DNA from: an uncultured delta proteobacterium | Lineage (GTDB): Bacteria; Desulfobacterota; Binatia; UBA9968 | Direction of reading: 5' to 3' | Length of the DNA: 64,000 bases | Assembly (NCBI GenBank): GCA_963816145.1 | Contig: CAWFJP010000003.1 | Span: 736,001-800,000, forward strand | Shown here: positions 21,989-62,159 of the stretch, in pieces | Layout: each line of letters begins with the position of its first letter | Numbering within the stretch: position 1 is the stretch's first letter | The notes under the pieces: generated by a model | Seen by the model: only the letters and a program-made list of their open reading frames with translations | What the model was told of the DNA's origin: nothing | The model's database searches: none | Translations under genes and position numbers: made by a program

Positions 21989-22112
21989 AGTTTATTTGCC
22001 CGTACCGTCACTTAGAAATTTGCCCCGGCGCCGGAAATAATTCCGGCGCCGAGATTGCCTCATACTCAAAGCGATTAAATTGACGGAACCCCGCTGCGGG
22101 AGGGAAAATTCC

Positions 22113-23177
22113 ATGGGAATATTTGAGCGCTCACCGTGTCGCCGATTTCTCGCCGCCGGGCTCTTTGCGATGCTGGTTTTTGCGATCAGCAGCAATGCCC
22201 AAGCCCAAACCGAAAGCTTTTACAGCGGCAAGACTGTACGAATCCTAGTCGGCGCAACGCCCGGCGGTTTTTACGACCGTTGGGCCCGGCTGCTCGCGCG
22301 TTACATTCCCAAATACATCGCCGGCAATCCTAACTTCGTCGTGCAAAACATGCCAGGGGCCGGCTCCGTGGTGGTGGCCAACTACACTTACAATATGGCG
22401 AAGCCTGACGGACTAACGCTGGTGATGCCGCTCAACAGCTTACACCTCGACCAGATCGTCGGCCGGCCCGAAGTAAAGTACGATTTGCGCAAATTCGAAT
22501 ATATCGGCAGCCAAGAAAAAACCCCGACCATGATGTATTTCCGCGCCGACAGCCCGATCAAGACGCTCGGCGATATCATTGCGGCCAAGGAACCGCCCAA
22601 GTGCGGATCAAGCGGCACAACCAGCACGGCCTACACCGTGTCGAAGCTTTTGAACGAAGCCTTCAAGGCCAAAACCATCAGCATCAGCGGCTACCAGGGT
22701 GGCAGCGAGATCGACCTGGCCGTCGAGCGCGGCGAAATCGTTTGCCGTCAAATGGATGTGCCGCCGCACTTTGGGCGGGAACCCTTCGACGGTTGGCACA
22801 AGCGAAACTTCGACCGTCATATATTTCAAGGCGGCCCCAAGCGCGATGCGCGTTTGGCCGAGGTGCCGACGCTGTTCGAGCTGCTCGACCAATATAAAGC
22901 GCCGGCGATCATGCGCAGCCTGACCCGCATCATACTCGCCAGCGGTGAACTGGGCCGGCCCATGATGGCCGGTCCCGGTGTGCCAGCGGAACGGGTCAAA
23001 GCGTTACGGGAAGCCTACGCCAGAGCAATGCGCGACCCAGGCCTGATCGAAGAAGCCAAGAAAGGCCAGATGGACCTGGAACATACTTCCGGTGAAGAAC
23101 TGCAAGAACAGATTAAAGAGATCATGAGTCAACCGCGCGAAGTGATCGATCTGGTTAAAAAAGTGTTGGCGGATTGA
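22113..23177 (+). CDS. tctC: TctC/Bug substrate-binding protein (array 1, group A)
   Basis: FYSGKTV, TPGGFYDRWAR, VQNMPGAG, KPDGLT, GYQGGSEIDLAVERGE. Confidence 0.88.
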   Translation: MGIFERSPCRRFLAAGLFAMLVFAISSNAQAQTESFYSGKTVRILVGATPGGFYDRWARLLARYIPKYIAGNPNFVVQNMPGAGSVVVANYTYNMAKPDGLTLVMPLNSLHLDQIVGRPEVKYDLRKFEYIGSQEKTPTMMYFRADSPIKTLGDIIAAKEPPKCGSSGTTSTAYTVSKLLNEAFKAKTISISGYQGGSEIDLAVERGEIVCRQMDVPPHFGREPFDGWHKRNFDRHIFQGGPKRDARLAEVPTLFELLDQYKAPAIMRSLTRIILASGELGRPMMAGPGVPAERVKALREAYARAMRDPGLIEEAKKGQMDLEHTSGEELQEQIKEIMSQPREVIDLVKKVLAD

Positions 23178-23184
23178 GGTAGTT

Positions 23185-24282
23185 ATGAAACATAAATTCA
23201 CAATTCCGTTTAAGAACTCAAAGGTTCAAGGGTTCAATCGGATCTTGTTCGGCGCGCTCTTTCTAACCCTTGAATTCTTGAACCCCTTGAACCTTGAACC
23301 AGCGGCGGCGCAGACGCCGCCTTTTTATCAAGACAAGACCGTCCGCATCGTTGTCGGCTTCACCCCCGGCGGCTTCTACGACCGTTGGGCGCGGCTCCTG
23401 TCGCGCTACATGCCCAAATATATTCCCGGCAATCCTAACTTCGTCGTCCAGAACATGCCCGGCGCCAGCTCGGTGATCGCCGCCAATTATGTTTACAATT
23501 TGTCCAAGGCCGACGGCCTGACGCTGCTGGTGCCGATCAACAGTCTCTATCTCGATCAAGTGGTTGGACGCCAAGAAGTGAAGTTCGACGTGGGCAAATT
23601 CGAATTCATCGGCACTCAAGAGAAGGCGCCGACATTATTGTATTTTCGCGCCGACAGCCCGTTCAAAACCCTGAACGATATTATCAACGCCAAGGAACCG
23701 CCGAAATGCGGCTCGACCGGCACGGCGAGCACCGGCTACCTGCTCGCCAAGATCATGGACGAAGCCTTCAAGGCGAGAATGGCCACGGTCACCGGCTATC
23801 AGGGCGGCAGTGAGATCGACATCGCCGTCGAACGCGGCGAAATCGTCTGCCGCGGCATGGACATTCCGCCGCACTTCGGTCGCGAGCCATTTGACAGCTG
23901 GCACAAGAAGGGCTTTGACCGTCACATTCTCCAAAGCGGGCCCAAGAAAGACCCGCGCATGGGTGACGCGCCGACGCTCTTTGAGTTCATGGATCAATTT
24001 AAGACGCCCGATGTCGTCCGCCGCGCCGCCCGCGTGATTATGGCGAGCGGTGATTTCGGCCGGCCCATGGTCGCCGGCCCCGGCAATCCGCCCGACCGCA
24101 TCAAGATCCTGCGCGATGCCTACGCCAAAGCGATGCGCGATCCGGGGCTCATCGAAGAAGCCAAGAAAAGCCAGATGGACATGGAATATACCTCCGGCGA
24201 AGACCTCCAAACACTGATGAAAGAGCTGATGAATCAGCCGCACGAAGCGATCGAACGGGTGAAAAAAATCCTCGCAGACTGA
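23185..24282 (+). CDS. tctC: TctC/Bug substrate-binding protein (array 2, group A, hairpin leader at 23208-23299)
   Basis: TctC motifs; leader FKNSKVQGFN...LEFLNPLNLEPAAAQ. Confidence 0.88.
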   Translation: MKHKFTIPFKNSKVQGFNRILFGALFLTLEFLNPLNLEPAAAQTPPFYQDKTVRIVVGFTPGGFYDRWARLLSRYMPKYIPGNPNFVVQNMPGASSVIAANYVYNLSKADGLTLLVPINSLYLDQVVGRQEVKFDVGKFEFIGTQEKAPTLLYFRADSPFKTLNDIINAKEPPKCGSTGTASTGYLLAKIMDEAFKARMATVTGYQGGSEIDIAVERGEIVCRGMDIPPHFGREPFDSWHKKGFDRHILQSGPKKDPRMGDAPTLFEFMDQFKTPDVVRRAARVIMASGDFGRPMVAGPGNPPDRIKILRDAYAKAMRDPGLIEEAKKSQMDMEYTSGEDLQTLMKELMNQPHEAIERVKKILAD

Positions 24283-24289
24283 GGTGCTT

Positions 24290-25375
24290 ATGAAATTCAC
24301 AAACCAGTTCAAAGGTTCAACAGTTCAAAGGTTCAAAGTTCTCGGATTTTTAATCTTCTTTGTCGTTGAACTTTTGAACCTTTTGAACCTTGAACCAGCG
24401 TCTGCGCAGCAGACGCCGTTCTATCAAGGTAAAACCATTCGCATCATCGTAGGTCTGACGCCGGGCGGCTTCTACGATCGCTGGGCGCGCCTACTCGCCC
24501 GCTTCATGCCGCTTTATATACCGGGCAATCCCAGCTTCATCGTGCAGAACATGCCGGGCGCGGGATCGATGATCGCAATGAATCATGTCTTCGGCGTCGC
24601 CAAGCCGGATGGGCTCACCGTGGTCATGCCCAACTACGGCGTCTATCTCGATCAGTTAGCAGGACGGAAAGAAGTCCGTTTCGACATCACCAAGGGCTAT
24701 TACATCGGCTCGCCGGAGAAAAGCGATATCGTTCTCTACGCCCGGGCCGACGCCCCATTCAAATCAGTTCAGGACATGAGAAAGCTCGCCGAGCCTGCGA
24801 AGTGCGGCGCCACCGGCACCGCCGGCGCGGATTACCTGATTGCCAAAGTTCTCGACGACACACTTGGCGTGAAAATCAATTCGGTGCTTGGCTATGCCGG
24901 CGGCAGCGAGATCGACATCGCCGTGGAGAAAGGAGAAGTGCTCTGCCGCGGCATGACCATCGCGCCCCATTTCGGCCGCGAGCCTTTCGATAGCTGGCAT
25001 AAGAAGGGCTTCGATCAGCATATCGTTCAAACCGCGGAGAAGCGCGATGGCCGCATCGCTGACGTGCCAACGCTTTACGAAATCTTCGACAAAGAAAACA
25101 CCGCCGATGAGAGCCGGCGGGTCGCCGATGTTATTTTGCGCGGCGGCGACTTTGGCCGCCCCATGCTGGCCGGCCCCGGCACGCCCCTCGACCGCGTGAA
25201 GATACTGCGCGAGGCCTACGTCAAATCAATTAGCAATCCGGAGCTTCTCGCCGAAGCCAAGAAGGCCCGTATGGATGTGGAACCGGTTACTGGCGAACAG
25301 CTGGATGCACTGGCGAAACGAGTCATGAACCAGCCTGCCGGAGTCATCAACAGGGTAAAAAAGATTTTGGAGTAA
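24290..25375 (+). CDS. tctC: TctC/Bug substrate-binding protein (array 3, group A, hairpin leader at 24307-24395)
   Basis: TctC motifs; GAGG RBS; leader FKGSTVQRFK...VELLNLLNLEPASAQ. Confidence 0.88.
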   Translation: MKFTNQFKGSTVQRFKVLGFLIFFVVELLNLLNLEPASAQQTPFYQGKTIRIIVGLTPGGFYDRWARLLARFMPLYIPGNPSFIVQNMPGAGSMIAMNHVFGVAKPDGLTVVMPNYGVYLDQLAGRKEVRFDITKGYYIGSPEKSDIVLYARADAPFKSVQDMRKLAEPAKCGATGTAGADYLIAKVLDDTLGVKINSVLGYAGGSEIDIAVEKGEVLCRGMTIAPHFGREPFDSWHKKGFDQHIVQTAEKRDGRIADVPTLYEIFDKENTADESRRVADVILRGGDFGRPMLAGPGTPLDRVKILREAYVKSISNPELLAEAKKARMDVEPVTGEQLDALAKRVMNQPAGVINRVKKILE

Positions 25376-25411
25376 GCGCTGGAAATCCATCAGCCGTAGG
25401 AACAATGAGTT

Positions 25412-25728
25412 ATGATGAGAGTTGCTCTGTTCGCGGTGTGTTTGTTTCTGCTTTGCGCGTCGAAGGTGCCGGCCCAGACACCCTCTACCAAGGCAAACAA
25501 ATTAAAGTCGTCGTTGGTTTCACCACCGGCGGTTTTTACGATCGCTGGGCCAGGCTGCTGTCCCGATACATGCCGAAACATATCCCGGGTAGCCCTGAGA
25601 GCGGCGAGAATCTGGAAAAGCTCGTCAGCAAGACTATGAACCAACCTGCCGACGTTATTGCGCGGGTCAAGAAACTTCTGGGCAATCAGTTGATTAAACC
25701 ATTTTCGATGGTAATTTTCGCGTTATAA
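25412..25728 (+). pseudogene. tctC remnant (array 4): frameshift after the signal peptide and a large internal deletion
   Basis: Signal MMRVALFAV...AQTP is out of frame with YQGKQIK...GGFYDRWAR...HIPG, which joins directly to the C-terminal SGENLEKL...RVKKLLG. Confidence 0.8.
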
Positions 25729-25752
25729 AAAATTTAGGAGGTTAGAAGCTAG

Positions 25753-26781
25753 ATGTTAAGAGTCTTAGTTATTTTATCGATCCTGATGATTGGCCAAGCG
25801 GCTCACGCCCAGACCCCGTTTTATCAAGGAAAAACCATTACGATCATTGTCGGCACCAAGGCGGGCGACGCCTATGATTTATATCCGCGCATGCTCGCCG
25901 AGTTCATGCCCAAATACATTCCCGGCAACCCCAACATCATTATTCAGAACGTCCCAGGGGCGGCGTCGATGATCGCCGCTAATCAAGTTTATAATATTGC
26001 CAAACCGGACGGCCTGACCCTCGGCGCGATCTATCCGGCGCTCTATTTCGAGCAACTCACGAAAAAGCCCGAGGTAAAATTCGACTGGACCAAATTCGGT
26101 TGGATCGGCAATCCAGTGACATCGAATCATCTCCTCTACATGCGCTCGGATGCGCCGTACAAGTCGATGGACGATATCAAGAACGCCAAGGAGGCTCCGA
26201 AGTGCGGCTCCAACGGCATCACCTCGACGGGCTACTACCTGCCCAAGCTCATGGAGGAAGCCCTCGGCACGAAATTTGACATCGTGTTAGGCTATCAGTC
26301 CGGCCAGGACGTCGACCTTGCCGTCGAGCGCGGCGAGATCGTCTGCCGCGCCTTTACGATCACCGCCTACTTCGCCCGCGAGCCGTTCATTTCCTGGCGC
26401 AAGCGCGGCTTCGTCAACACGCTGATGCAGAGCGGCGCAAAGCGCGATTCTCGCCTCAAAGATGCGCCGACGATCTATGAGCTCATGGATAAATACAAGA
26501 CCAACGCCGCCGGCCGAAGTCTGGCTAAGGTAGTCCTGTCCGCCGGCGAATTTGGCCGCCCCCTTGTCACACCTCCAGGGTTACCCGCGGACCGGCTAAA
26601 GATCTTGCGCGATGCCTTCGATAAAGCGGTCAAAGATCCCGAGCTCTTGGCGACCGCGGAAAAACGGCGCCTGGAAATGGATCCGGAGAACGGCGCGGAA
26701 ATGGAAGCCCTGTCGAAAGAAGTGATGGCAGCGACCCCCGACGTCATCCAGCGCATGCAGAAACTATTAGGCGGTAAGTAG
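25753..26781 (+). CDS. tctC: TctC/Bug substrate-binding protein (array 5, group B)
   Basis: KAGDAYDLYPR, PKCG, AVERGEIVCR; ordinary short signal peptide. Confidence 0.88.
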   Translation: MLRVLVILSILMIGQAAHAQTPFYQGKTITIIVGTKAGDAYDLYPRMLAEFMPKYIPGNPNIIIQNVPGAASMIAANQVYNIAKPDGLTLGAIYPALYFEQLTKKPEVKFDWTKFGWIGNPVTSNHLLYMRSDAPYKSMDDIKNAKEAPKCGSNGITSTGYYLPKLMEEALGTKFDIVLGYQSGQDVDLAVERGEIVCRAFTITAYFAREPFISWRKRGFVNTLMQSGAKRDSRLKDAPTIYELMDKYKTNAAGRSLAKVVLSAGEFGRPLVTPPGLPADRLKILRDAFDKAVKDPELLATAEKRRLEMDPENGAEMEALSKEVMAATPDVIQRMQKLLGGK

Positions 26782-26875
26782 AAATTAACCGCCGGGCGAT
26801 CCCTCAAGGCGGTTGCATCGCAGCAGCCTTGAGGGATATGCTCCGGCCAATTTATCGGCGGGAAGGAGAAACCTT

Positions 26876-27901
26876 ATGTTTTCAACTCTCGTTGTTTTGG
26901 CCGTTCTTGCCTGGAGCTCGACGCTTTTCGCGCAAGCGCCCTTCTACCAAGGTAAGACCATCACCATCGCCGCCGGCACCAAAGCGGGCGATGTCTACGA
27001 TCTCTATCCGCGACTGCTTGCGGAATACATGCCCAAGCATATCCCGGGCAGCCCCAACATCATTGTGCAAAACATCCCGGGCGCGGCTTCGTTGATCGCC
27101 GCCAACCAAGTCTATAATACCGGTAAACCTGACGGATTGTCTCTGGCGGCGATCTATCCGGCGCTCTATTTCGATCAGCTGATCAAGCGACCGGAAGTGA
27201 AATACGACTGGGCAAAATGGCAGTGGCTTGGCAGCCCGGTAAAATCGAACCAGCTGCTCTACATGCGCGCCGACACCCCATACAAATCGATGGATGACAT
27301 CCGCAAAGCGGCGACGGCGCCCAAGTGCGGCTCCACCGGTATCGCTTCTGCAGGCTACTACATACCCAAGCTCTTGGAGGAAGTGCTCGGCACCAAGTTC
27401 GATGTCGTGTCGGGCTACCAATCCGGGCAAGATATCGATCTGGCGGTGGAACGGGGCGAGCTCCAGTGCCGGGCGTTTACCATCACCGCTTACTATGCCC
27501 GGGAGCCGTTTATCTCCTGGCGCAAACGGAATTTCACCAATGTGTTGGTCCAAACCGGCAGCCAGCGCGACGCGCGAATCAAGGACTCGCCGACGATTTA
27601 TGAGTTGATGGATCGATACAAAACCAGCGGGACGGGACGAACCCTGGCGAAAGTAATCCTGGCTTCGGGAGATTTGGGACGCCCCATCGTCGCGCCGCCG
27701 GGTGTGCCGGCGGATCGGATCAAAATGCTGCGAGACGGCTTCGATAAGACTGTCGCCGACCCGGCGTTCCTTGCGGAAGCGGAAAAGCGCCGGCTCGAAA
27801 TCGATCCGACCAAATGGGATGAAATGGAGACGCTGGCAAAAGAAGTCATGACCACACCCGCGGATGTGGTGGCGCGCATGCGCAAGCTCTTGGGCGACTA
27901 A
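26876..27901 (+). CDS. tctC: TctC/Bug substrate-binding protein (array 6, group B)
   Basis: KAGDVYDLYPR; AAGGAG RBS; hairpin ATCCCTCAAGGC...GCCTTGAGGGAT upstream at 26791-26847. Confidence 0.88.
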   Translation: MFSTLVVLAVLAWSSTLFAQAPFYQGKTITIAAGTKAGDVYDLYPRLLAEYMPKHIPGSPNIIVQNIPGAASLIAANQVYNTGKPDGLSLAAIYPALYFDQLIKRPEVKYDWAKWQWLGSPVKSNQLLYMRADTPYKSMDDIRKAATAPKCGSTGIASAGYYIPKLLEEVLGTKFDVVSGYQSGQDIDLAVERGELQCRAFTITAYYAREPFISWRKRNFTNVLVQTGSQRDARIKDSPTIYELMDRYKTSGTGRTLAKVILASGDLGRPIVAPPGVPADRIKMLRDGFDKTVADPAFLAEAEKRRLEIDPTKWDEMETLAKEVMTTPADVVARMRKLLGD

Positions 27902-28005
27902 CGGGCAATCGATCTCGTAGTCACGGGCCTAGCCCGTGGATCTGGCTCGTGTTGCGATTCGCCGCCGGCGATTGTACACGGGAAATAAATAACGGAGGCC
28001 GTTGC

Positions 28006-29308
28006 ATGGTGCCAAGTCGTCTTGATTTTACTCTCTGTGCTGGCTTGCTGGCTCGTTACTGGGTTGGGCGGGGATTACGCATCCAGACTACCTCTTTTAC
28101 AAAGACAGAGACCATCAGACTCGTCGCCGGCACGCCCCGGCGGGGAGCGTCTACGTCTCGAGCGCCGCTATGGTCGCCCAGTTCATCGGCAAATACCACC
28201 GGCGCGCTGAGCGGCGCCTACCTCGCCGGCCTGATCAACCATCGCTGGCTGTTTGTTATTCCTGGCATCGCCATGGGCTACTCTGCGCAGATCATGTTCC
28301 GGAAACGCCTCCAGGTCGCCAATGATATCTATACCATGGCCAAGCCCGACGGTTTGACCATCGGCTCGATCCAACCCGCCCTCTATTTCGATCAATTGGT
28401 CGGCCGCAAGGAAGTGCAGTTCGACTGGAAAAAGTTCACCTGGATCGGCAACACCACGGTGTCCGACTATCTGCTCTACATGCGCAGCGATACGCCATAC
28501 AAAATCCGTCGAAGATATTCGCAAGGCCGCCGTACCGCCCAAATGCGGCGCCGAAGGGACCGGTTCGTCGGCCTACTACCTACCTAGACTGCTGGAAGAA
28601 ACCATCGGCGCGAAGTTCACCGTCGTCACCGGCTACAACTGGCCGGCACCGATGTCGACCTGGCGGATTGGAGCGCGGCGAGGTGCAATGCCGCGCCTTT
28701 ACCATCGCTGCTTTCTTCGCCCGAGAGCCCTTCGTCTCTGCGCAGAGGGAAAGGTTTCGTCCATGTCATCGTACAGATCCGGCAAAAAGCGCGACGCTAA
28801 GCTGCCAGACACGCCGACGTTCGCCAAATCGAATTGCTATAAGCAACTTACTGCGCGGTAGCGTGGTGTTAAGCCTGGTGGTCATCGTCATCGGCACGGT
28901 CGTGACCTTTGTCGATCATCCGGAGTTTCTCTCATCGCCTAGCGCTCTGGGACTACTGATCAACCCGGGCACAACCCTACCACATACTCTCGACGCCGTG
29001 GCCCGCGGCCTCCAAGCGCTGCAAGGCGATGCCATTGTCACTCTCGGTCTGCTCCTACTTATTGCGACGCCGGTGATGCGCGTCGGTATTTCGATCCTCG
29101 CCTTTGTCTACGAACGCGACGCGTTTATACCTTCAACACGGTCACAGTTTTTTGCCTGCGGATCCTTTCTTTCTTCCTCGGCAAAGTCGAAAAGCGTAGC
29201 GCCTCGATCGGCGGTCTCCGGCGAAGCATTCGGAAAAGCTCGGCAATGAGATCAATGGCGCAACCGCCGGACGTCATCGAGCGCATGAAAAAATTATTGG
29301 GAACTTGA
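28006..29308 (+). pseudogene. Frameshifted tctC (array 7) interleaved with TauE/SafE-like and DUF1634-like segments
   Basis: tctC pieces (AKPDGLTIG, ERGEVQCRAF, QPPDVIERMKKLLG) alternate with TTGALSGAYLAG...MGYSA at ~28195-28310 and ISNLLRG...GLLLLIATPVMRV...ERD at ~28825-29197. Confidence 0.75.
28825..29197 (+). pseudogene. DUF1634-like membrane protein segment embedded in array slot 7
   Basis: ISNLLRG-VVLS, AIVTLGLLLLIATPVMRVGISILAFVYERD; no clean start; frameshifted near its end. Confidence 0.65.
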
Positions 29309-29349
29309 AAGATCGGCAACGTCGCCAAAGATTAAAGGAGGTGACCAAT

Positions 29350-30415: not shown

Positions 30416-30422
30416 CGAAGGG

Positions 30423-31509: not shown

Positions 31510-31514
31510 ATCAA

Positions 31515-32639: not shown

Positions 32640-32685
32640 TATCAATTTTGGATTCTCGATTTTAGATTTTGGATTGACGGGCTCC

Positions 32686-33763
32686 ATGCATCGACTATTG
32701 CTCTTGACGACAAAGTTTTTCGCATTCTTCTTCGTCCTGACCCTCGAATTCTTGAACCCCTTGAACCTTGAACCGGCGGCGGCGCAAACGCCGCCCTTCT
32801 ATCAAGGCAAAACACTCAAGATCGTGGTCGGCTCGGCATCCGGGGGCGGTTACGATCTTTGGGCGCGTTTACTGGCGCTCCATATCGGCAAACATATTCC
32901 CGGCCACCCGACCGTGGTCGTGCAGAATCTGCCGGGAGCCGGCGGTTTGGTTGCCGGGAATTTTGTTTATGGTCTAGCCAAGCCTGACGGCCTGACCATC
33001 GGTGCGTTCAACCCGGCGCTCTATTTCGAACAACTGGTCGGCAAGCCGGAGAGCAAGTTTGATTGGACCAAGTTCAGCTGGATCGGCTCGCCCGAGAAAA
33101 ACGACGCTTTGCATTACATCCGCGCCGACTCGCCGTATAAAACCATCGACGATTTGCGCAATGCCAAGGAGCCGGCCAAATGCGGCAGCACCGGCGGCGG
33201 CACCACCGCCCACTATTTTCCCCGGCTGCTCGAAGACACCCTGGGCATCAAAACCACCCAGGTCACCGGCTATCAGGGCGGGTCGGAAATCGATCTCGCC
33301 GTCGAACGCAACGAAATCATCTGCTGGACGCCGCTGATCGCGACCTACTTCGGCCGCGAGCCTTACAAGCGCTGGCACAAGACCGGTTTCGTTCGCGTCG
33401 TCGTCCAGACCGGCGACAAACGCGACGAGCGCTTGAAGGATGTACCAACGCTCACCGAACTGATGCAGCAGTACAAAACTCCAGAGGCCAGCCGCCGGCT
33501 CGCCAAAGTGGTCTTGACCGCCGCCAACCTCGGCCGCCCCATCGCCGGCCCGCCGCGCCTACCGGCGGAACTGCTAAAAACTTTACGCGACGCCTACGCC
33601 AAATCGATGAAAGACCCCGAGCTCCTCGCCGAAGCCGCCAAGCGCGGCTGGGAAGTCGACCCCCATACCGGCGCCGAACTCGAGACGTTGGCGAAGGAAG
33701 TCATCAACCAGCCCAAGGAAGTGATTGAGCATTGAGCGGATGAAATGGGTGCTGGGAAACTAG
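32686..33763 (+). CDS. tctC: TctC/Bug substrate-binding protein (array 11, group C); a 7-bp duplication truncates the last ~8 codons
   Basis: ASGGGYDLWAR; ATTGAGC-ATTGAGC gives a stop at 33735, and the original tail RMKWVLGN* ends at 33763. Confidence 0.82.
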
Positions 33764-33770
33764 AGCCGCC

Positions 33771-33903
33771 AATTTTGGATTTTAGATTTTGGATTTTGGA
33801 TTAGGGGAAAAGAGCGTGAAGAAAAGATCTTGGATGCGATGGCTAGATTCTTCTTCCGATAATCCAAAATCGAAAATCCAAAAGCAGCCCCGCGGACCAA
33901 AAT
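33771..33903. repeat. Heptamer palindrome (ATTTTGG)n...(AATCCAA)n straddling the start of the 33816 gene
   Basis: AATTTTGGATTTTAGATTTTGGATTTTGGATTAGGGGA...AATCCAAAATCGAAAATCCAAAA. Confidence 0.8.
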
Positions 33904-34876
33904 GGGGATGGCTTGTTGCCCTCGGCGTCGCGTTCGCAATGGGTGGCGCCGTAGGCGACGCGCAGCAGCAGGCAAAGGTGTTTAAGATTGGCTGGCTCGC
34001 TATCGGTAGCGCCACTTCAATCTCCAGGTATCAGGCGTTCCGGCGTAGCCTCCCTGATCTCGGCTACGTTGAGGGCAAGAATATCTCATTCGAGTTTCGA
34101 TCGGCAGACAACAAGCTCGCCTCGCTTCCCGCGCTAGCTGATGAGTTGGCCCGTCTCAATGTTGACGTAATCGTCACACGCGGCACGCCTGAAGCCCTAG
34201 CTCTCAAAAACGCTACCAGGACAATCCCCATCGTTTTTTACGATGTGACGGATCCAATAGCGGCGGGGCTGGTTGACAGCTTGGCCCGGCCTGGTGGAAA
34301 CATCACGGGGTTTTCCGGCATGGAGGCAGTGTTGGCGGGCAAACGATTGGAGTTACTCAAGGACACCCTTCCAAAACTCTCCCGCGTTGCGGTGCTGTGG
34401 AATCCGCAGGATCTTAGCTCCGCGCAACAATGGAAAGAAAGCCAACTGCCGGCACGAGCACTGGGGCTGCAACTTCATTCCATGGAAGTAAGCAGCGCCG
34501 ATAAATACGAGAACGCGTTCAGAGAGGCAATGAAAGCGCGGAGTGGCGCTCTCGCTGTGATAGCTGGAGCGGCTGGAAGACTCTAACGGACAGAAGATCG
34601 CAGATCTGGCAACAAAAACTCGGCTGCCAGCGATATACCCTCGTACTACTTTTATCGACAGCGGCGGGTTGATGTCCTACGGACGCGACCGAGAAGAGGG
34701 CTGTCAAGCGGGTACCCATTATGGTCGACAAGATTCTCAAGGGAACCAAGCCCGCCGACATTCCTGTCGAGCAGCCAATGAAGTTTGATTTGCCAATTAA
34801 TCTAAAAACCGCCAAGGCACTTGGACTGACGATTCCACCGCTTGTGCTCACGCGGGCGACGAAGGTGATCAAGTAG
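33816..34876 (+). pseudogene. ABC_sub_bind substrate-binding protein, frameshifted near 34570 and 34700
   Basis: DSLARPGGNITG in the 5' ORF; GGLMSYG and [17 protein letters not shown] continue in shifted frames to TAG 34876. Confidence 0.8.
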
Positions 34877-34899
34877 GCGCGAGGCTTGAGGCGAAAGGC

Positions 34900-35906
34900 G
34901 TGAGCAAGATGATGAGAGGAAAGCCGATGATAAGCAGAATCGCCTGCCGACTGTTGGCTGCTTCCATTCCGCTTTTTGTTTCTCAAACCGACGCACAGCA
35001 GCCGGCAAAGGTTGCAAAGATTGGCTGGCTCGCCGTGCGGCCGGCGTCTGCTGCTTTCGCGATCGAGTCATTTCAGCGAGAATTCGGCAAACTCGGCTAT
35101 GTTGACGGGAAGAACATAGTTTTCGAGTATCGATACGCTGAGGGTAATCTCGACCGACTCCCTGCGCTAGCTGACGAACTTGTTCGTCTTAAAGTTGATG
35201 TGCTCATCGCGCCCAATACTCCGGCCGCGTTAGCCGCTAAGAACGCTACCAGATCTATCCCCATCGTTTTTATAGACGTAACCGACCCCATCGCGGCTGG
35301 GCTGATCGATAGCCTGGCGCGGCCTGGCGGGAATATCACGGGGTTTACTACCATTTGAGCAGTGCTGGCCGGCAAAAGACTTGAGTTGCTAAAAGAAACC
35401 GTTCCCAAGCTCTCCCGCGTCGGGGTGCTGTGGGATCCACAAGGACCAAGCTCTGGGCAGGTTGGAAAGAAAGCCAACTGCCGGCAAGAGCTCTGGGCTT
35501 GCAACTTCATTCCATGGAAGTCAGCAGCGCTGACAAATACGATGCAGTGTTCAAGGAGGCAATGAAAGCGCGCGTCGGCGCTGTCGCCTGGATGGCGTCC
35601 CCGCTGGGCGACCTAAATCAAAGGGATACGGTCGAACTAGCGAAGAGATATCGCCTGCCGACAATTTATAGTCGGCAACCGGTTGTCGAAAATGGCGGCC
35701 TGATGTCTTACGGTCCCGACCGGGACGAACCCTTCAGGCGCACCGCCGTTTTTGTCGACAAGATTTTGAAGGGAACTCATCCATCCGACATACCAGTCGA
35801 GCAGCCAACCAAGTTCGAATTGGCGATCAATTTAAAAACTGCCAAAACACTCGGCCTGACTATTCCACCGCTCATGCTCACGCGGGCGACGAAGGTGATC
35901 AAGTAA
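34900..35906 (+). pseudogene. ABC_sub_bind substrate-binding protein with an in-frame TGA (35356) and a frameshift (~35460)
   Basis: ORFs 34900-35358, 35362- and 35430-35906 reconstruct one tandem paralog of 33816-34876. Confidence 0.8.
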
Positions 35907-36026
35907 ATGCAGACAACAGGCACACAGGCAATAGGCAATAGTTAGAACTTCTCATTGCACTCAGCCCAGACTCCACGGTATTCATAACCCGCGCGATTGC
36001 TCAAAATAACCATGAGGTGATTCTGG

Positions 36027-37121
36027 ATGCGTGGAATAAAAGATTTGTTCAAGAGTTCAAAAGTTCAAGGGTTCAATCGGATTCTTCTCGGTATTCTTTT
36101 TCTGACCCTTGAACTTTTGAACCCTTTGAACCTTGAACCGGCGTCTGCGCAGCAGACGCCCTTCTACCAAGGCAAAACCATCACATGGATCGTCGGCAGC
36201 AAGGCGGGCGATGCTTATGATCTTTATCCGCGCCTGCTGGCCGAGTATCTGCCCAAGTATATTCCCGGCAATCCCAATATTATCATTCAGAACGTCGGCG
36301 GCGCGGCCTCGCTGATCGCGGCCAACCAAGTGTACAGCGTCGCCAAGCCCGACGGATTGACTCTCGGCGCGATCTATCCGGCGCTTTATTTCGATCAACT
36401 GGTGAAACGGCCGGAAGTAAAATACGACTGGAATAAATTTTCCTGGATCGGCAGCCCGGTGAGTTCCAACCACATGATGTACATGCGCGCGGATACACCC
36501 TTTAAAACCATCGACGACCTGCGCACCGCCGCGCAGCCGCCGAAATGCGGCTCCAGCGGGGTCAATTCGACCGGCTACTACATTCCCAAACTGATGGAAG
36601 AAGCGATCGGCGCCAAGATCGAAATGGTCGCCGGCTATCCGGGTGGCCAGGATATCGAACTTGCGGTCGAGCGCGGCGAATTAGTGTGCCGATCGTTTAC
36701 GATCACAACGTTCCATAGCCGCGAGCCGTTTTTTACCTGGCGCAAGAAAAACTTCGTCCGCGTGCTCTACCAAACTGGCACCAAGCGAGACCCGCGCTTG
36801 AAAGACGTGCCGACAATGTATGAGATAATGGATCGCTACAAGACACCGGAATCGGTGCGCAAGCTCGCCAAGGTAATCCTGATCGCCAGTGATTTGGGCC
36901 GGCCTATCGTGGCGCCGCCGGGCGTGCCTCCAGCGCGCTTGAAAACCATCCGCGAGGCCTTCAACAAAGCGGTCGCTGACCCGGCCTTCTTAGCCGACGC
37001 GGACAAGCGCAAGCTTGAAATCGATCCATCGTCTTGGGAAGAGATGGAATCCTTGGCCAAGGAGGCGATGGCGACGCCGCCTGATGTTGTCGATAGAATG
37101 AAAAAGATTCTCGGCATGTGA
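36027..37121 (+). CDS. tctC: TctC/Bug substrate-binding protein (array 12, group B, hairpin leader at 36047-36138)
   Basis: KAGDAYDLYPR; leader FKSSKVQGFNRILLG...LELLNPLNLEPASAQ. Confidence 0.88.
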   Translation: MRGIKDLFKSSKVQGFNRILLGILFLTLELLNPLNLEPASAQQTPFYQGKTITWIVGSKAGDAYDLYPRLLAEYLPKYIPGNPNIIIQNVGGAASLIAANQVYSVAKPDGLTLGAIYPALYFDQLVKRPEVKYDWNKFSWIGSPVSSNHMMYMRADTPFKTIDDLRTAAQPPKCGSSGVNSTGYYIPKLMEEAIGAKIEMVAGYPGGQDIELAVERGELVCRSFTITTFHSREPFFTWRKKNFVRVLYQTGTKRDPRLKDVPTMYEIMDRYKTPESVRKLAKVILIASDLGRPIVAPPGVPPARLKTIREAFNKAVADPAFLADADKRKLEIDPSSWEEMESLAKEAMATPPDVVDRMKKILGM

Positions 37122-37145
37122 CGTAATCCAAAAATGAGGTCTTTC

Positions 37146-38243
37146 ATGACGCAACGAACGAAACATCCGTTCAAAAGTTCAAACGTTCAAACGCTCAAGG
37201 TTCTCGGGCTCGTGATTTTTTCCGTCGTTGAACTTTTGAATCCTTTGAACCTTGAACGGGCGTCTGCCCAGCAGACGCCTTTCTATCAAGGCAAAACCAT
37301 CCGGATCATCGTCGGCAATCTGCCGGGCGACACCCATGACATCTTCGCCCGCGCTTACTCGCGCCACATGGGCAAACATATTCCCGGCTTCCCTAACATT
37401 GTCGTGCAAAACATGCCCGGAGCCGGCGGCATGATCGCGGCCAACCATGTCTACAACGTCGCGAAACCGGATGGACTGACACTCGGCTCCCCGTCCCCGG
37501 CGCTTTATTACGCGCAACTGGTTGGCCGGAAAGAGGTCAAATTCGATTGGCCCAAGTTCAACTTCATCGGTTCGCCGGAGCGCAATGGTCACTTGTTATT
37601 CATGCGCTCAGACTCGCCCTACAAAACTCTCGACGACATCCGGAAAGCCAAGGAGCCGCCCAAGTGTGCCGCTACGGGAGTTGGCACCAGCGGCCACGAC
37701 GTGCCCAAACTGTTCGACGAGATGATCGGCTTGAAGTTCAACCTGATCACCGGCTATCCCGGCGGCGCCGAAATGGATTTGGCCATCGAACGTGGGGAAG
37801 CGGTATGCCGCGCCATTACCGTGGCGGCGTTCTTCGCCCGAGAGCCATTTGTCACCTGGTACAAAACCGGTGTCGTGCGTGTGCTTCTGCAAACCTCGCG
37901 GCAGAGAAATCCGAAAATTCCCGATGTGCCGACTTTGTTCGAGCTCATGGAGCAGTACAAAACGCCGGAGATCAAGCGCCGCCAGGTGCTAGTCTATCTC
38001 GGCGTCGGCGGCTTCGGCGCCTGGCCGATTCTCTCCACACCCGGAATACCCGCGGAGCGCGTGACGACTCTCCGCGAAGGGTTCAGCAAAACCATGAAAG
38101 ATCCGGATTTCTTGGCGGAAGCGAAAAAAGCCGGTTGGGAGATCCGCCCCACCAGCGGCGAAGATTTGCAAGCGCTAGCGAAGGAAGTCATCGACCAGCC
38201 ACCGGAAGTGGTCGAGTGGCTAAAAAAATTATTGGCGAAATAA
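37146..38243 (+). CDS. tctC: TctC/Bug substrate-binding protein (array 13, group D, hairpin leader at 37169-37257)
   Basis: LPGDTHD; GAGGT RBS before ATG 37146. Confidence 0.88.
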   Translation: MTQRTKHPFKSSNVQTLKVLGLVIFSVVELLNPLNLERASAQQTPFYQGKTIRIIVGNLPGDTHDIFARAYSRHMGKHIPGFPNIVVQNMPGAGGMIAANHVYNVAKPDGLTLGSPSPALYYAQLVGRKEVKFDWPKFNFIGSPERNGHLLFMRSDSPYKTLDDIRKAKEPPKCAATGVGTSGHDVPKLFDEMIGLKFNLITGYPGGAEMDLAIERGEAVCRAITVAAFFAREPFVTWYKTGVVRVLLQTSRQRNPKIPDVPTLFELMEQYKTPEIKRRQVLVYLGVGGFGAWPILSTPGIPAERVTTLREGFSKTMKDPDFLAEAKKAGWEIRPTSGEDLQALAKEVIDQPPEVVEWLKKLLAK

Positions 38244-38262
38244 ATTTACTGAGAGAGGCTCT

Positions 38263-39360
38263 ATGGCACTTCAATTAATCACGTCGTTCAAAAATTCAAA
38301 GGTTCAAACGTTCAATTTTCTCGGATTCTTGCTCCTCTCCGTCGTTGAGCTTTTGAACCCCTTGAACCTTGAACGGGCGTCTGCCCAGCAGGCGCCTTAT
38401 TATCAAGGCAAAACCATCCGCGTCGTCGTCGGCTATCAGGCCGGCGACTCGCACGACCAGTGGGCGCGCACCTACACGCGTTATCTCGGCAAATTCATTC
38501 CAGGCAACCCCACCTTCCTGGTGCAAAACATGCCCGGCGCCGGCGGCATGATCGCCGCCAACTACATCTTCAACGTCGCCAAGCAGGATGGCTTGACCAT
38601 GGGCACCATCGGCGGCGCGCTTTACTTCGCCCAATTGATTGGCCGCAGCGAAGCAAAATACGACTGGAACAAATTCACCTGGATCGGCACGCCGGAGAAA
38701 AGCGGCTTTCTCGTCTTTATGCGCACCGACGCGCCCTATAAGACTCTCGACGACCTGCGCACTACCAACGATCCGCCGCGCTGCTCGGCCACCGGCGTCG
38801 GCAGCAGCGGTTACGACATTCCGCGCGTTCTGGAAGACACGGTCGGAATGAAGTTTAAAGTCATCAGCGGTTACCCCGGCGGTGCCGATCAAGATTTGGC
38901 AATGGAGCGCGGCGAAGTGCAATGCCGAGCATTTACCATCGACGCTTTCTTTGGCCGCGAACCCTTTCCCACCTGGGTGAAAAAGGGCTTTGTCCGCGTC
39001 ATCATACAGATGGAACGCAAGCGCCACCCCAAGCTGCAGGACGTGCCGACGCTCTGGGAGCTGATGGATCAATACAAAGTGCCGGAAGCGAAGCGGCGGC
39101 TCGCCACGGTTTATTTGAACAGCGGCCTGTTCGGTTCTCGCCCCATCGTCTCGACACCCGGCCTCACCGCGGAGCAAGCGAAAATTCTCCGCGAAGCCTA
39201 CGTCAAGACGCTCAAAGATCCGGAATTCCTGGACGAGATCACCAAGCGCGGTTGGACGGTCGATGCCGTGAGCGGCGAAGATCTGCAGGTTCTAGCTAAG
39301 GAAGTCACGACCCAGCCGCCGGAAGTCATCGATTGGCTGAAAAAACTGTTGACCAAATAA
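38263..39360 (+). CDS. tctC: TctC/Bug substrate-binding protein (array 14, group D, hairpin leader at 38286-38374)
   Basis: QAGDSHDQWAR, PRCSATG, AMERGEVQCR. Confidence 0.88.
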   Translation: MALQLITSFKNSKVQTFNFLGFLLLSVVELLNPLNLERASAQQAPYYQGKTIRVVVGYQAGDSHDQWARTYTRYLGKFIPGNPTFLVQNMPGAGGMIAANYIFNVAKQDGLTMGTIGGALYFAQLIGRSEAKYDWNKFTWIGTPEKSGFLVFMRTDAPYKTLDDLRTTNDPPRCSATGVGSSGYDIPRVLEDTVGMKFKVISGYPGGADQDLAMERGEVQCRAFTIDAFFGREPFPTWVKKGFVRVIIQMERKRHPKLQDVPTLWELMDQYKVPEAKRRLATVYLNSGLFGSRPIVSTPGLTAEQAKILREAYVKTLKDPEFLDEITKRGWTVDAVSGEDLQVLAKEVTTQPPEVIDWLKKLLTK

Positions 39361-39390
39361 GCCGAAGTAAGAAGGCGAACGAGGTCGGTC

Positions 39391-40476
39391 TTGAAAATCA
39401 TTTTGGTCAAAAGTCCAAAGGTTCAAAGGTTCAACGTTCTCGGGTTCTTGATCCTCTCCGTGCTTGAACTTTTGCACCCTTTGAACCTTGAACGAGCGTC
39501 AGCACAGACGCCCTACTATCAAGGCAAAACCATCCGGTTCATCGTCGGCTACCAACCCGGTGACAATCACGACCAGTGGTCGCGCGCCTATGCGCGCTTC
39601 ATGGGCAAGTATCTTCCCGGCAATCCCAACTTTCTCGTGCAAAATATGCCGGGCGCCGGCGCGATGATCGCGGCCAATCATATCTACAACATGACCAAGC
39701 CGGACGGCTTGACGCTCGGCACCCTCGGCGGCGCCTTGATCATGGCGCAGATCACCGGCCGCAAGGAAGTGCAATTCGATTGGTCTAAGTTCGGTTGGAT
39801 CGGCACGCCGTACCGCGCCGGTCATGTGCTGTTCATGCGCAGCGATACGCCGGTCAAGACCTTGGAGCAACTGCGCCAGACCAACGACCCGCCGCGCTGT
39901 TCCGCCACCGGCGTTGGCAGCACCGGCTATGACATTCCGCGCTTGCTCGAAGACGCCTTCGGCTTCAAATTCAAAGTCATCAGCGGCTACCCAGGTGGCG
40001 CCGATCAAGACCTGGCGATGGAAAGAAACGAAGTGCAGTGCCGCGCCATCACCACCGACGGTTTCTTCGGCCGCGAGCCGTTTATTACATGGTACAAGAA
40101 AGGCTTTGTGCGTATCTGGCTGCAAACCGAAAAGCAGCGCCACCCCAAAGCCGCTGACGCGCCGACGATTTTCGAGTTAATGGATCAATTCAAGATCGCC
40201 GATACCAAGCGGCGCTTGGTGCATACTTACTTGGGCTTGTGGGGCTTTGGCTCGATGCCGGTGATCACTTCGCCAGGATTACCCGCCGAGCGCCTGACGA
40301 TGCTGCGCGACGCTTGGGCCAAGACCTTCGCCGATGCGGAATTTCAAGAGGACCTCGCCAAGCGAAACTGGGAAGCCCGGCCGGTATTCGGTGAAGAACT
40401 GCAAAATCTCGCCAAAGATGTAGTCAATCAGCCGCCGGAAGTCGCCAGCGCGCTGAAACGAATTCTCGGTCAATAA
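39391..40476 (+). CDS. tctC: TctC/Bug substrate-binding protein (array 15, group D, hairpin leader at 39405-39493)
   Basis: QPGDNHDQWSR; GAGGT before TTG. Confidence 0.88.
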   Translation: MKIILVKSPKVQRFNVLGFLILSVLELLHPLNLERASAQTPYYQGKTIRFIVGYQPGDNHDQWSRAYARFMGKYLPGNPNFLVQNMPGAGAMIAANHIYNMTKPDGLTLGTLGGALIMAQITGRKEVQFDWSKFGWIGTPYRAGHVLFMRSDTPVKTLEQLRQTNDPPRCSATGVGSTGYDIPRLLEDAFGFKFKVISGYPGGADQDLAMERNEVQCRAITTDGFFGREPFITWYKKGFVRIWLQTEKQRHPKAADAPTIFELMDQFKIADTKRRLVHTYLGLWGFGSMPVITSPGLPAERLTMLRDAWAKTFADAEFQEDLAKRNWEARPVFGEELQNLAKDVVNQPPEVASALKRILGQ

Positions 40477-62091: not shown

Positions 62092-62159
62092 TTGGAACTA
62101 CTGGAACCACTATCTCTCTGACGATTTGAACGTTTTGAACGGCTTGAACGTTTTGAACG
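62092..62159. repeat. (TTGAACNNN)n arm
   Basis: TTTGAACGTTTTGAACGGCTTGAACGTTTTGAACGG. Confidence 0.7.

Follow-up and report, generated by a model that had tools for sequence, protein, structure and literature searches.

The window analysed here is a 64,000-nt stretch from a metagenome-assembled genome (MAG) of Candidatus Binatia, an uncultured bacterium, and its positions 22080-40476 are a single transporter locus of the form tctB-(tctC)n-tctA (Table 1). Twelve TctC (PF03401) genes in this interval are intact or nearly so and three are decayed, and every full-length array member scanned matched Pfam TctC (12/12). Tct genes usually have the layout tctC-tctB-tctA, or tctC occurs as an orphan gene; unlike these arrangements, the Binatia locus has its two membrane-subunit genes set apart by a dozen diverged paralogs of the binding protein. 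The Bug/TctC family is expanded in Bordetella and Cupriavidus, and the Binatia genome is like those expansions in having many TctC paralogs (~100), far more than membrane units, but differs from them in that a repeat-encoded leader is common to most paralogs of the array.

Table 1. Features of the tct locus, with the parts of each repeat-encoded leader, in window positions.
Feature	Position	Strand	Left arm	Right arm	Hairpin 2	Junction	RNA fold z	Remarks
tctB, small membrane subunit	21497..21988	+						PF07331 TctB, E 5e-15; upstream border of array
A22113, tctC paralog, ordinary signal peptide	22113..23177	+					0.70	PF03401; leader MGIFERS...SSNAQA/Q
A23185, tctC paralog, repeat-encoded leader, type I	23185..24282	+	23224-23237	23270-23299	23300-23322	23323	-1.67	cleavage variant AAAQTPP
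A24290, tctC paralog, repeat-encoded leader, type II	24290..25375	+	24307-24336	24366-24395	24396-24418	24419	-5.10	variant ASAQQTP
A-type tctC remnant	25405..25728	+						N-terminal GGFYDRW fused to C-terminal end, internal deletion; 107-aa ORF; repeat family D10/D17 copies
B25753, tctC paralog, ordinary signal peptide	25753..26781	+					0.47	PF03401
B26876, tctC paralog, ordinary signal peptide	26876..27901	+						PF03401
Decayed tctC paralog	27949..29300	+						several frame breaks, broken ORFs; repeat copies D8, D14, D15, D17
B29350, frameshifted tctC pseudogene	29350..30415	+						degenerate non-signal N-terminus; overlapping ORFs 29410-29952, 29810-30415; two tblastn pieces
C30423, tctC paralog, repeat-encoded leader, type I	30423..31509	+	30434-30463	30497-30526	30527-30549	30550		
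C31515, tctC paralog, leader of right arm and hairpin 2 only	31515..32639	+		31624-31653	31654-31676			
C32686, tctC paralog, leader of right arm and hairpin 2 only	32686..33735	+		32744-32773	32774-32796			variant AAAQTPP, like A23185; C-terminus ~7 aa short
Array interruption	33789..35906	+						three ORF pieces, ABC-type binding protein PF04392, E 3e-33, 1e-19, 3e-16; two partly duplicated copies; D19 repeat, 71% identity
B36027, tctC paralog, repeat-encoded leader, type I	36027..37121	+	36047-36076	36109-36138	36139-36161	36162	-4.45	variant ASAQQTP
D37146, tctC paralog, repeat-encoded leader, type II	37146..38243	+	37169-37198	37228-37257	37258-37280	37281	-3.41	
D38263, tctC paralog, repeat-encoded leader, type II	38263..39360	+	38286-38315	38345-38374	38375-38397	38398		
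D39391, tctC paralog, repeat-encoded leader, type II	39391..40476	+	39413-39434	39464-39493	39494-39513	39514		TTG start
tctA, large membrane subunit	40581..42080	+						PF01970 TctA, E 2e-118; downstream border of array

An earlier note on this DNA had sorted the mature domains by motif and the leaders by type, and both sortings are present as it described them. Group A (GGFYDRW) comprises A22113, A23185, A24290 and the fragment at 25405/25412; group B (KAGDxYDLYP) B25753, B26876, the pseudogene B29350 and B36027; group C (GGGYDLW) C30423, C31515 and C32686; and group D (GDxHD) D37146, D38263 and D39391. Type I leaders (FNRI..LFLTLE) are found on A23185, C30423 and B36027, type II leaders (F.VLGF...VVELL) on A24290, D37146, D38263 and D39391, and ordinary short signals on A22113, B25753 and B26876, the leader of B25753 being alike across its orthologs.

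In nine genes of the array the leader, 40-50 aa long, comes from a palindromic DNA element that reads (GTTCAARR)2-4, loop, (YYTTGAAC)3-4 and then a GC hairpin of 5-10 bp. The A-rich GTTCAA octamers of the left arm encode FKSSKVQ, the T-rich loop encodes the hydrophobic core, the TTGAAC octamers of the right arm encode ELLNPLNLE, and the second short GC hairpin spans the AxA/Q cleavage site. The palindrome lies within leader DNA, and the reading frame of the element is conserved. C31515 and C32686 have only the right half of the element, and in C31515 GGATTTTGGATTTT-type repeat sequence stands in place of the left side. TTGAACCTTGAAC occurs in 10 copies in the window versus 0.07 expected, a pattern that is not due to chance. 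RNA fold z scores of four repeat leaders ran from -1.67 to -5.10 (Table 1), and three ordinary leaders scored 0.47, -1.70 and 0.70, the last being A22113, which is without a hairpin signal.

Across seven genomes, the left arm is preceded by an in-frame start codon (ATG, GTG or TTG) in 30 of 38 repeat leaders. Among these 30, the start is ATG in 27 and a Shine-Dalgarno-like motif is present in 28, the n-region has a net charge of +1 to +6, and the best 10-aa hydropathy is 1.9-3.4. AxA before Q ends 35 of the 38 leaders, the exceptions being VFA (one) and LFA (two). From these sequence features we infer translation of the repeat leaders and a role for them as signal peptides. The positively charged n-region (FKSSKVQ.F) would come from the A-rich GTTCAARR units, the hydrophobic core from the T-rich loop together with the beginning of the right arm, NPLNLE from the YYTTGAAC units, and the cleavage site from the second hairpin. 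In eight of the 38 leaders no clean start precedes the left arm, and five have no in-frame start whatever, four of them in genome G019. Among the leaders lacking a clean start are C30423, which is frameshifted (its ATG at 30423 is in a different frame from the mature domain and meets a stop after 25 codons, and TTG 30469 is the sole in-frame start), and C31515 and C32686, whose left arm is lost. Indel errors made by assembly in homopolymer runs may account for some of the start-less or damaged leaders, as may real inactivation.

The earlier note held that leader types cut across mature-domain subfamilies, and trees and tests bear this out. On a careful maximum-likelihood (ML) tree of 43 mature domains the leader state needs six changes, with starred branches forcing at least five changes. 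A single origin of the repeat leader was seen in 0 of 200 bootstrap trees, and the AU test rejects monophyly of the repeat-leader genes (p 0.0026). Repeat-leader A23185 is sister to ordinary-leader A22113 (support 100/99), the sisters of A24290 are the ordinary-leader genes C17_200279 and C2_282649 elsewhere in the genome (98/97), and the nearest relatives of B36027 all have ordinary leaders (C4_247499, 97/95; B25753 and B26876, 100/99). Ordinary signals, themselves diverse, are found in 33 of the 43 subfamily members.

The same uncoupling is seen between species. In a comparison of 38 leaders from seven genomes, one per species and all of them MAGs, mature domains fall into clean, syntenic ortholog groups (amino acid distance 0.104 between orthologs versus 0.448 between paralogs), whereas leaders show no such grouping: leader DNA distance is 0.269 between orthologs, 0.264 between same-genome paralogs and 0.283 between other-genome paralogs. 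The leader alignment has only 102 columns, and because the arms are nearly invariant it is the loop and hairpin 2 that give it resolution. On the tree of the 38 leaders the ortholog-group label takes 28 changes, equal to the shuffled mean of 28.0, and the AU test rejects leader monophyly in all five ortholog groups tested. In related genomes, orthologs that share a syntenic position differ in leader type. Left-loop type is associated with genome (p 0.024) but not with ortholog group (p 0.71), as is the cleavage-site variant (p 0.015 versus 0.37); right-loop type is not associated with genome (p 0.41). All five leaders of G022 are type I, and all seven of G017 and all four of G018 are type II, although the leader tree groups leaders by genome only weakly (22 changes versus 25.2 shuffled, a value as low in 10 of 200 shuffles). 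All eight combinations of loop type and cleavage variant were found, and six leaders have mixed left and right loop halves. Ordinary leaders, taken as a control, keep an orthology signal (0.323 versus 0.435), whereas repeat leaders do not (0.208 versus 0.221). Leader and mature-domain histories are uncoupled both within and between species, and the congruent trees with one gain plus losses that the earlier note had set against its own proposal were not found.

Vertical descent would have the repeat leader gained once in the array ancestor and then lost or replaced, with the likeness among leaders kept by strong nucleotide-level constraint on the hairpin. The arms are indeed nearly invariant (distance 0.11-0.12 in all classes), and the pattern is confined to the genus, being present in 18 of 24 genomes (a count that takes in the unpublished genome G005) versus none of the 16 genomes from two further families of that order. 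Every examined ortholog of the repeat-leader genes in six other species has a repeat leader, and its presence is therefore old. We nevertheless regard vertical descent as very unlikely, since it is at odds with the six changes of leader state, the diverse ordinary signals and the rejected monophyly; moreover, loop columns are 0.50 apart between orthologs, the same as between paralogs, when ordinary ortholog leaders differ by just 0.32, and block-wise type switches among orthologs cannot arise by point substitution.

In 12 of 12 triplets, chosen after the leader types were seen, the leader matches the same-genome paralog and the mature part matches the ortholog (Fisher p 1e-3 to 1e-11). The uncoupled tract, ~110 nt long, begins with the last unit of the left arm and ends at the FYQGKT junction; the earlier note had suggested looking for breakpoints near the AQQTPFYQG junction. 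The ortholog/paralog distance ratio is ~1 across the leader core, drops to 0.66 over the 30 nt that follow the junction and is 0.34-0.62 farther on; upstream, through the 3' end of the previous gene, the spacer and the start region, it is 0.53-0.88 (0.53-0.73 up to the start codon). Because both flanks of the leader core track orthology, the exchanged unit is a short internal tract, indicating conversion and not crossover.

We therefore infer short-tract gene conversion as the mechanism; it fits the data best, better than repeated insertion, vertical descent or misassembly. The leader cassette has probably been passed between paralogs in this way, with mature domains and gene order inherited vertically. 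A copy of a genome-wide palindromic repeat would have moved from between genes into coding sequence and been domesticated as a Sec-type signal peptide in nine paralogs. The cassette, bounded in all copies by near-identical sequence (the repeat arms at one end, the conserved TTCTAYCAAGGCAAAAC (FYQGKT) junction at the other), could then be copied from paralog to paralog by short-tract homologous recombination. The earlier note had the leader moving independently of the binding domain, by gene conversion or by repeated insertion, and of these two the former is favoured.

The leader element is a member of a genome-wide repeat family, in which GTTCAA/TTGAAC arrays form 200 clusters of at least three hexamers, as well as 35 paired palindromes. 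At the centre of the generic copies is a short GGTCGGA..TCCGACC sequence, and both leader types keep remnants of it (TCGGA / CTGACC; CGGA / TCCG). REP/BIME elements of enterobacteria lie between cistrons, for example malE-malF, and REPs are extragenic by definition. The Binatia repeat is like them in being a short GC-stabilised palindrome with hundreds of dispersed copies, typically placed just 3' of a binding-protein gene within a transporter operon; unlike a REP, the leader copy is probably translated. An in-frame repeat inside the leader is found in 10 of 100 full-length TctC matches in the genome, nine in the window and one, C13_67179, on another contig; as the latter lies outside the array, an ectopic event or relocation is needed to account for it. 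Repeat hexamers lie upstream of six further tctC genes, five of which have a stop codon between these hexamers and the signal peptide; the sixth, C30_405212, has just two hexamers, upstream of its start codon.

Repeated independent insertion, in which a MITE- or REP-like mobile repeat landed separately before each mature domain and gave a signal peptide each time, could draw on this dispersed family, on the generic copies directly upstream of other tctC genes (5-6 of 100) and on C13_67179. There is also precedent: Rickettsia RPEs and other in-frame bacterial MITEs are described as dispersed palindromic repeats inside coding genes (PMC2229807; PMC10969869), and the Yersinia YPAL/RU-2 element in one locus as partly forming a predicted signal peptide (Delihas review, PMC2229807). 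The elements described there share with the Binatia leaders a palindrome read in frame and a long nucleic-acid stem-loop, but the Binatia element would make up an entire signal peptide, n-, h- and c-regions alike, in a family of established periplasmic binding proteins; it is fixed at a single codon, is conserved throughout the genus, and has apparently been passed among paralogs by recombination. We consider repeated insertion improbable and favour gene conversion, because all 38 leaders have a T-rich ~30-nt loop in one frame and a second hairpin fused to AxA/Q, features that the generic copies listed do not show. Separate landings would also have to strike the same codon in six lineages, nine of the ten copies sit in one array, and the differing types on orthologs at one position would be left unexplained. 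No target-site duplication is visible at the leader elements, the three small Y1-transposase genes are without flanking GTTCAA repeats, and no cognate transposase or RAYT-type transposase association was found for the repeat; transposition of the leader element is not supported.

Near-identical leader segments in MAGs might instead have produced chimeric joins that mispair leaders with mature domains, and contigs from other loci do cross-map on the right arms, where contig ends hang loose at 30525-30528 and summed depth is high at 30510. Such an artefact is exceedingly unlikely, given that the longest exact match between two window leaders, read from the alignment, is below ~30 nt, that gene order in the array is identical in the seven genomes, and that leader/mature junctions are crossed by contigs that show few differences and come from three independent metagenome runs, belonging to three studies. 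Joins bridged in this way are those of A23185 (independent contig records 9 and 24), A24290, C30423, C31515, C32686, D37146 and D39391, and for B36027 one independent contig runs from the leader right arm into the mature part. Differences numbered eight in record 9 (22158-23789), three in record 25 (23572-24516), three in record 14 (36109-37279) and seven in record 31 (38871-39995).

The array resembles the Staphylococcus aureus lpl genes, a tandem lipoprotein cluster in which the phylogenies of gene parts are incongruent and a conserved internal sequence is the site of recombination (Tsuru and Kobayashi 2008, PMC2568036). Both are tandem sets of exported-protein paralogs whose parts are shuffled by homologous recombination, probably so in the tctC array. 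As described for lpl, there is a single central crossover site, which keeps together as a unit the 3' part, the spacer and the 5' part that comes next (PMC2568036); in the tctC array, by contrast, the unit of exchange is a short internal tract of ~110 nt, derived from a repeat.

The array lies between tctB and tctA and consists of head-to-tail genes for TctC, the periplasmic receptor of tripartite tricarboxylate transporters. In a Pfam profile scan all 12 full-length array genes passed the curated cut-off for TctC (PF03401), scoring 32-71 bits where 27 are needed. The usual operon order is tctC-tctB-tctA; a dozen tctC genes between tctB and tctA is an unusual layout, and it is found again in the six related species examined. 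The interruption of the array consists of three ORF pieces of an ABC-type binding protein, two copies of which are 71% identical over 300 nt. We name paralogs by the group of their mature domain (A-D) and their gene start in the window. The four groups and the two leader types described in the earlier note, I (FNRI..LFLTLE) and II (F.VLGF...VVELL), were located as claimed.

Features of the tctC array and of the repeats in the window
Feature	Position	Remark
Generic copy of the GTTCAA repeat	865-893	
GTTCAAxCC family, first copy	4181-4288	C3:740181-740288 in genome coordinates
tctB	21497-21988	upstream border of the array
tctC array	22080-40476	period about 1.1 kb
Decayed tctC copy	25405	107-aa remnant
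Decayed tctC copy	27949-29300	broken copy
Decayed tctC copy	29350	frameshifted
GGATTTTGGATT repeat, first copy	31515-31570	
GGATTTTGGATT repeat, second copy	32640-32685	
GGATTTTGGATT repeat, third copy	33789-33870	
PF04392 pieces	33789-35906	unrelated to tctC; break the array between 32686 and 36027
tctA	40581-42080	downstream border of the array
GTTCAAxCC family, second copy	62126-62158	C3:798126-798158 in genome coordinates

The DNA of a long leader is composed of four parts. Two to four GTTCAARR units (the left arm) encode FKSSKVQ.F, a T-rich loop of about 30 nt encodes the hydrophobic core, three to four YYTTGAAC units (the right arm) encode ELLNPLNLE, and a GC-rich second hairpin, hairpin 2, encodes A-S-A-Q-Q-T-P, up to the conserved FYQGKT that starts the mature protein. 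As RNA, three of four repeat leaders folded much better than shuffled sequences (z -4.45, -5.10 and -3.41; A23185 reached only -1.67), which was not so for three ordinary leaders (0.47, -1.70 and 0.70). The genes at 31515 and 32686 have the right half of the leader element only, and the ATG at 30423 does not share the reading frame of its mature domain, running into a stop after 25 codons. An arm of the form GAATTCTTGAACCCC together with a GGCGGCG/CGCCGCC hairpin is common to A23185 and C32686, and B36027 and C30423 have another form in common. A second dispersed repeat, made of GGATTTTGGATT units whose two strands translate as DFGFS/ILDFGL and as NPKSKIQ, takes the place of the left arm at the 5' ends of 31515 and 32686 and is also present where the PF04392 fragment starts. 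Contigs of many other loci stop at 33770-33803, which is expected because the GGATTTTGGATT sequence is repetitive.

The source genome (7.8 Mb in 31 contigs) holds 200 clusters of at least three GTTCAA/TTGAAC hexamers and 35 paired palindromes, the generic palindromes being typically centred on a short GGTCGGA..TCCGACC. With its numerous, mostly intergenic imperfect palindromes and a stem-loop that is stable in three of the four leaders folded, the family resembles REP- and MITE-like repeats. The repeat stands in frame inside the leader in only 10 of 100 full-length TctC matches, of which nine belong to the window and the tenth to contig 13, and short, diverse, ordinary signals are found in 33 of the 43 members of the subfamily. 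Six further TctC genes have repeat hexamers upstream; in five of these a stop codon separates the hexamers from the signal peptide, and in the sixth, C30_405212, no more than two hexamers precede the start codon. Outside the tctC arrays, the pattern matches looked at in relatives (L044, L026, L013, L024, L028 and L014) are generic intergenic copies, and a search for repeat leaders on other protein families found no long ORF behind any of these six. Every leader has the T-rich loop and hairpin 2, and the listed generic copies lack both, indicating that the leaders are homologous to one another.

Two related observations concern repeats beyond the array. The sole repeat-type leader outside it (at about 4050-4160 of locus L136, C13:63000-70000) lies downstream of a 562-aa ORF that resembles, by eye, the window ORF 42270-43934 in length and N-terminal residues, and its only in-frame start is a TTG within the loop, leaving it no n-region. 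The GTTCAAxCC family, with 9-nt units translating as RSNRSN/GLNGLN, occurs in the window and on many other contigs, often encloses a CCCCCGCGTCGCGGGGGAGGA core hairpin, and is related to, yet distinct from, the leader family with its 7-8-nt units.

Among 38 repeat leaders from seven genomes, 30 have an in-frame ATG, GTG or TTG upstream of the left arm (27 of them ATG, 28 with a Shine-Dalgarno-like motif), and in these 30 the n-region carries a net charge of +1 to +6 and hydropathy peaks at 1.9-3.4 over 10 residues. The residues before Q are AxA in all of the 38 but three, one of which has VFA and two LFA. The eight irregular leaders comprise five without an in-frame start (four of them in genome G019), the frameshifted C30423 and two without a left arm; indel errors in the homopolymer runs of metagenome-assembled genomes (MAGs) could explain some of them. 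By the composition rules for such signals (positive n-region, hydrophobic core, AxA before Q), the repeat leaders are predicted to be translated as cleaved export signals; TctC proteins have to be exported, and the stretch from the element to the mature domain contains no alternative signal. In one metatranscriptome run from soil (X20), ten short contigs matched parts of the array with identities of 95-99% or above; a 276-nt contig starting at 26867 covers the ordinary leader of B26876, and none of the pieces listed bridges a repeat-type leader. We do not count this run as expression, as its contigs come without ends or strand and DNA carry-over is possible.

The earlier note had claimed that leader types cut across the subfamilies of the mature domain, and an ML tree of 43 mature domains, from which leader columns were left out by construction, bears this out. 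A23185, with a repeat leader, is sister to the ordinary-leader A22113 (branch supports 100/99); A24290 groups with two genes on other contigs (98/97); and B36027 joins C4_247499, a gene on contig 4 (97/95), and then B25753 and B26876 (100/99), all with ordinary leaders. Leader state needs six changes on this tree, and the starred branches require at least five. A single origin of the repeat leader was allowed by none of 200 bootstrap trees, and forcing the ten repeat-leader genes together cost 305 log-likelihood units (AU p = 0.0026). Misassembly is an unlikely source of the mixed genes, since in seven genes the join of leader and mature part is spanned by contigs from three independent runs, and a further contig runs from the right arm of the B36027 leader into the mature part of that gene. 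Rearrangements suggested by contig joints, such as 23465 to 31414, were rejected, their short sides measuring 20-41 nt and belonging to other paralogs or organisms. Elsewhere in the genome, two tctC paralogs on different contigs (C14:230260 and C22:7213) have identical mature domains and identical upstream sequence; the pair arose by duplication in recent times or by duplication in the assembly, for which contamination is given as 6.72%.

The leader pattern occurs in 18 of 24 same-genus genomes, a tally that takes in the unpublished genome G005, versus none of 16 from two other families of the order. In the arrays of six other species, mature domains fall into clean, short-branched ortholog groups in the same gene order, and every ortholog of a repeat-leader gene has a repeat leader, which argues that its presence is old. 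The assignment of leader to gene is not conserved across species. For example, G000 (the source genome) has type I on B36027 and type II on D37146, whose orthologs both have type I in G022 and in G004 and both have type II in G017 and in G018; the D37146 ortholog of G019 has type II.

Distances tell the two parts of the gene apart. Mature-domain amino acid distance is 0.104 between orthologs and 0.448 between paralogs, and repeat-leader DNA distance in the multiple alignment is 0.269 between orthologs, 0.264 between paralogs of the same genome and 0.283 between paralogs of different genomes. Aligned pairwise, repeat leaders differ by 0.208 between orthologs and 0.221 between paralogs, and ordinary leaders, the control, by 0.323 and 0.435. 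When leaders and mature domains were given separate trees, as the earlier note had proposed, the ortholog label required 28 changes on the leader tree against a shuffled mean of 28.0, whereas the mature domains sorted cleanly. AU tests rejected ortholog-group monophyly on the leader tree for all five groups tested (p 0.02 to 2e-72). Clustering of the leaders by genome is weak (22 changes versus 25.2 shuffled, a count as low being reached in 10 of 200 shuffles). Left-loop type shows an association with genome (p = 0.024) but not with ortholog group (p = 0.71), the cleavage-site variant likewise (p = 0.015 and 0.37), and right-loop type with neither (p = 0.41 and 0.14). These values come from MAGs throughout and from short leader alignments, and some of the tests were designed after the data had been seen.

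The pre-tctA gene was readable in 58 relatives, and among these clear repeat leaders occur in close relatives only; the gene contains at least three TTGAA[CT] hexamers in six of the 58. Worn forms of the repeat such as LSLEPLLAQANFYQ are found in some intermediate relatives, and distant Binatia, with TctA 67-69% identical, have ordinary signals throughout. This distribution of sequences fits a gain of the repeat leader in this lineage, after which the DNA repeat would have slowly decayed with the peptide remaining a signal.

To place the breakpoints, we divided ortholog distance by same-genome paralog distance in windows of 20-30 nt. From the 3' end of the previous gene through the spacer into the start region the ratio is 0.53-0.88, with 0.53-0.73 as far as the start codon; it is 1.0-1.1 over the last left-arm unit, loop, right arm and hairpin 2 (with 0.89 in the right-arm window), 0.66 in the first 30 nt past the junction, where the earlier note had suggested looking, and 0.34-0.62 in the remaining mature part. 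With a ratio of about 1 in the core and orthology tracked on both sides, about 110 nt are uncoupled. We also examined triplets of a query, its ortholog and a same-genome paralog of like type, picked after the types had been seen. In all 12, the informative sites of the leader lean more to the paralog, and those of the 600 nt that follow more to the ortholog (Fisher p 1e-3 to 1e-11). Leader sites are outright for the paralog in 11 triplets; in the one with A23185 the ortholog leads by 23 to 17. Loop type and cleavage variant occur in all eight possible combinations and the left and right halves of the loop are mixed in six leaders, suggesting that some exchanges end within the cassette as well, the invariant right arm being the most plausible place.

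The earlier note had offered gene conversion or repeated insertion as the means of movement, and of these the first fares better. Gene conversion between neighbouring paralogs fits the short tract, the near-identical flanks and the conserved synteny; a single unequal crossover does not fit, because the upstream gene would travel along with the leader. One array contains nine of the ten repeat leaders of the source genome, and seven of the nine occupy consecutive tctC genes. The closest relatives of B36027 have ordinary leaders without exception, yet the gene is located among members of groups C and D; in G017, G022 and G003 its sister lineage is placed in that part of the array where leaders are ordinary. 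This clustering in one array, together with the position of B36027, favours a local process. A mobile element inserted again and again explains the pattern less well, as the leaders have features missing from generic copies, the junction falls at the same codon every time, and no target duplication is visible at the leader borders. Nor did a RAYT or transposase link hold up: PF01797 gave seven Y1_Tnp matches in the source genome, and none of the six scanned had a GTTCAA array in its flanks. The three small ones carry other hairpins.

Signal peptides are usually regarded as gene-bound, fast-drifting sequence. In the tctC array, it appears that a dispersed palindrome of selfish aspect was taken into service as a complete export signal and then became an exchangeable module among paralogs, which would make it a case of de novo coding sequence from a repeat and of an evolutionary unit below gene size and independent of the gene. 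In practice, N-termini of the form FKSSKVQ...ELLNPLNLE in Binatia and similar MAGs should not be dropped as repeat-derived mis-annotation, and the leader should be left out of phylogenies for such families. In-frame palindromic repeats are known from the Rickettsia RPEs, and a Yersinia MITE forms part of a predicted signal peptide (PMC2229807, PMC10969869). Tandem paralogs of exported proteins recombine in the S. aureus lpl cluster, where the crossover pattern described carries the upstream gene (PMC2568036), in contrast to the short internal tract of the tctC array. In-frame repeats and paralog recombination were thus already known, and what appears new here is a whole signal peptide derived from a dispersed repeat and swapped as a cassette; in the open-access literature searched, no account turned up of such a repeat providing a binding-protein family with its complete signal peptide and being exchanged in this way.

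All but one of the 38 leaders have hairpin 2. Its sequence takes four forms, each of which folds and encodes AxA followed by Q. The stem GGCGTCTGC/GCAGACGCC goes with the peptide ASAQQTP, GGCGTCTG/CAGACGCC with ASAQTP, GGCGGCG/CGCCGCC with AAAQTPP, and ATTCGC/GCGAAT (variant GTTCGC/GCGAAC) with AFAQAN. Over a 42-nt window at the cleavage site, mean fold z is -2.22 for repeat leaders versus -0.42 for 45 ordinary leaders (Mann-Whitney p 1e-7). The leader would also be a case of hairpin and peptide constraints overlapping on one 110-nt stretch. Mainly because of hairpin 2, which sits exactly on the signal-peptidase site, we keep open a further reading that we consider rather doubtful: that the cassette is under dual selection, both as a complete signal peptide and as a two-hairpin RNA or DNA punctuation after each tctC cistron, which might act in processing, in stability or as a recombination site. 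Gain or loss of units or bases in the 7-8-nt units and homopolymer runs would then turn single binding proteins on and off, and conversion would reshuffle and repair the leaders. The opa genes of Neisseria have repeat tracts within the leader-coding region, and switching of this kind would be analogous to theirs.

Environmental contigs have 1-nt deletions in T- or C-runs of leader right arms at 24381, 36125 and 37241, and also at 30510. These would shift the leader frame if they come from these loci, and may alternatively reflect cross-mapping of repeat copies. The deletion at 30510 was rejected as the cause or repair of the 30423 frameshift, its position being downstream of the stop that closes the frame of that ATG, and the many contigs that carry it mostly depart from the locus at 30525-30528. 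Frame problems despite an intact mature domain are found in six of the 38 leaders.
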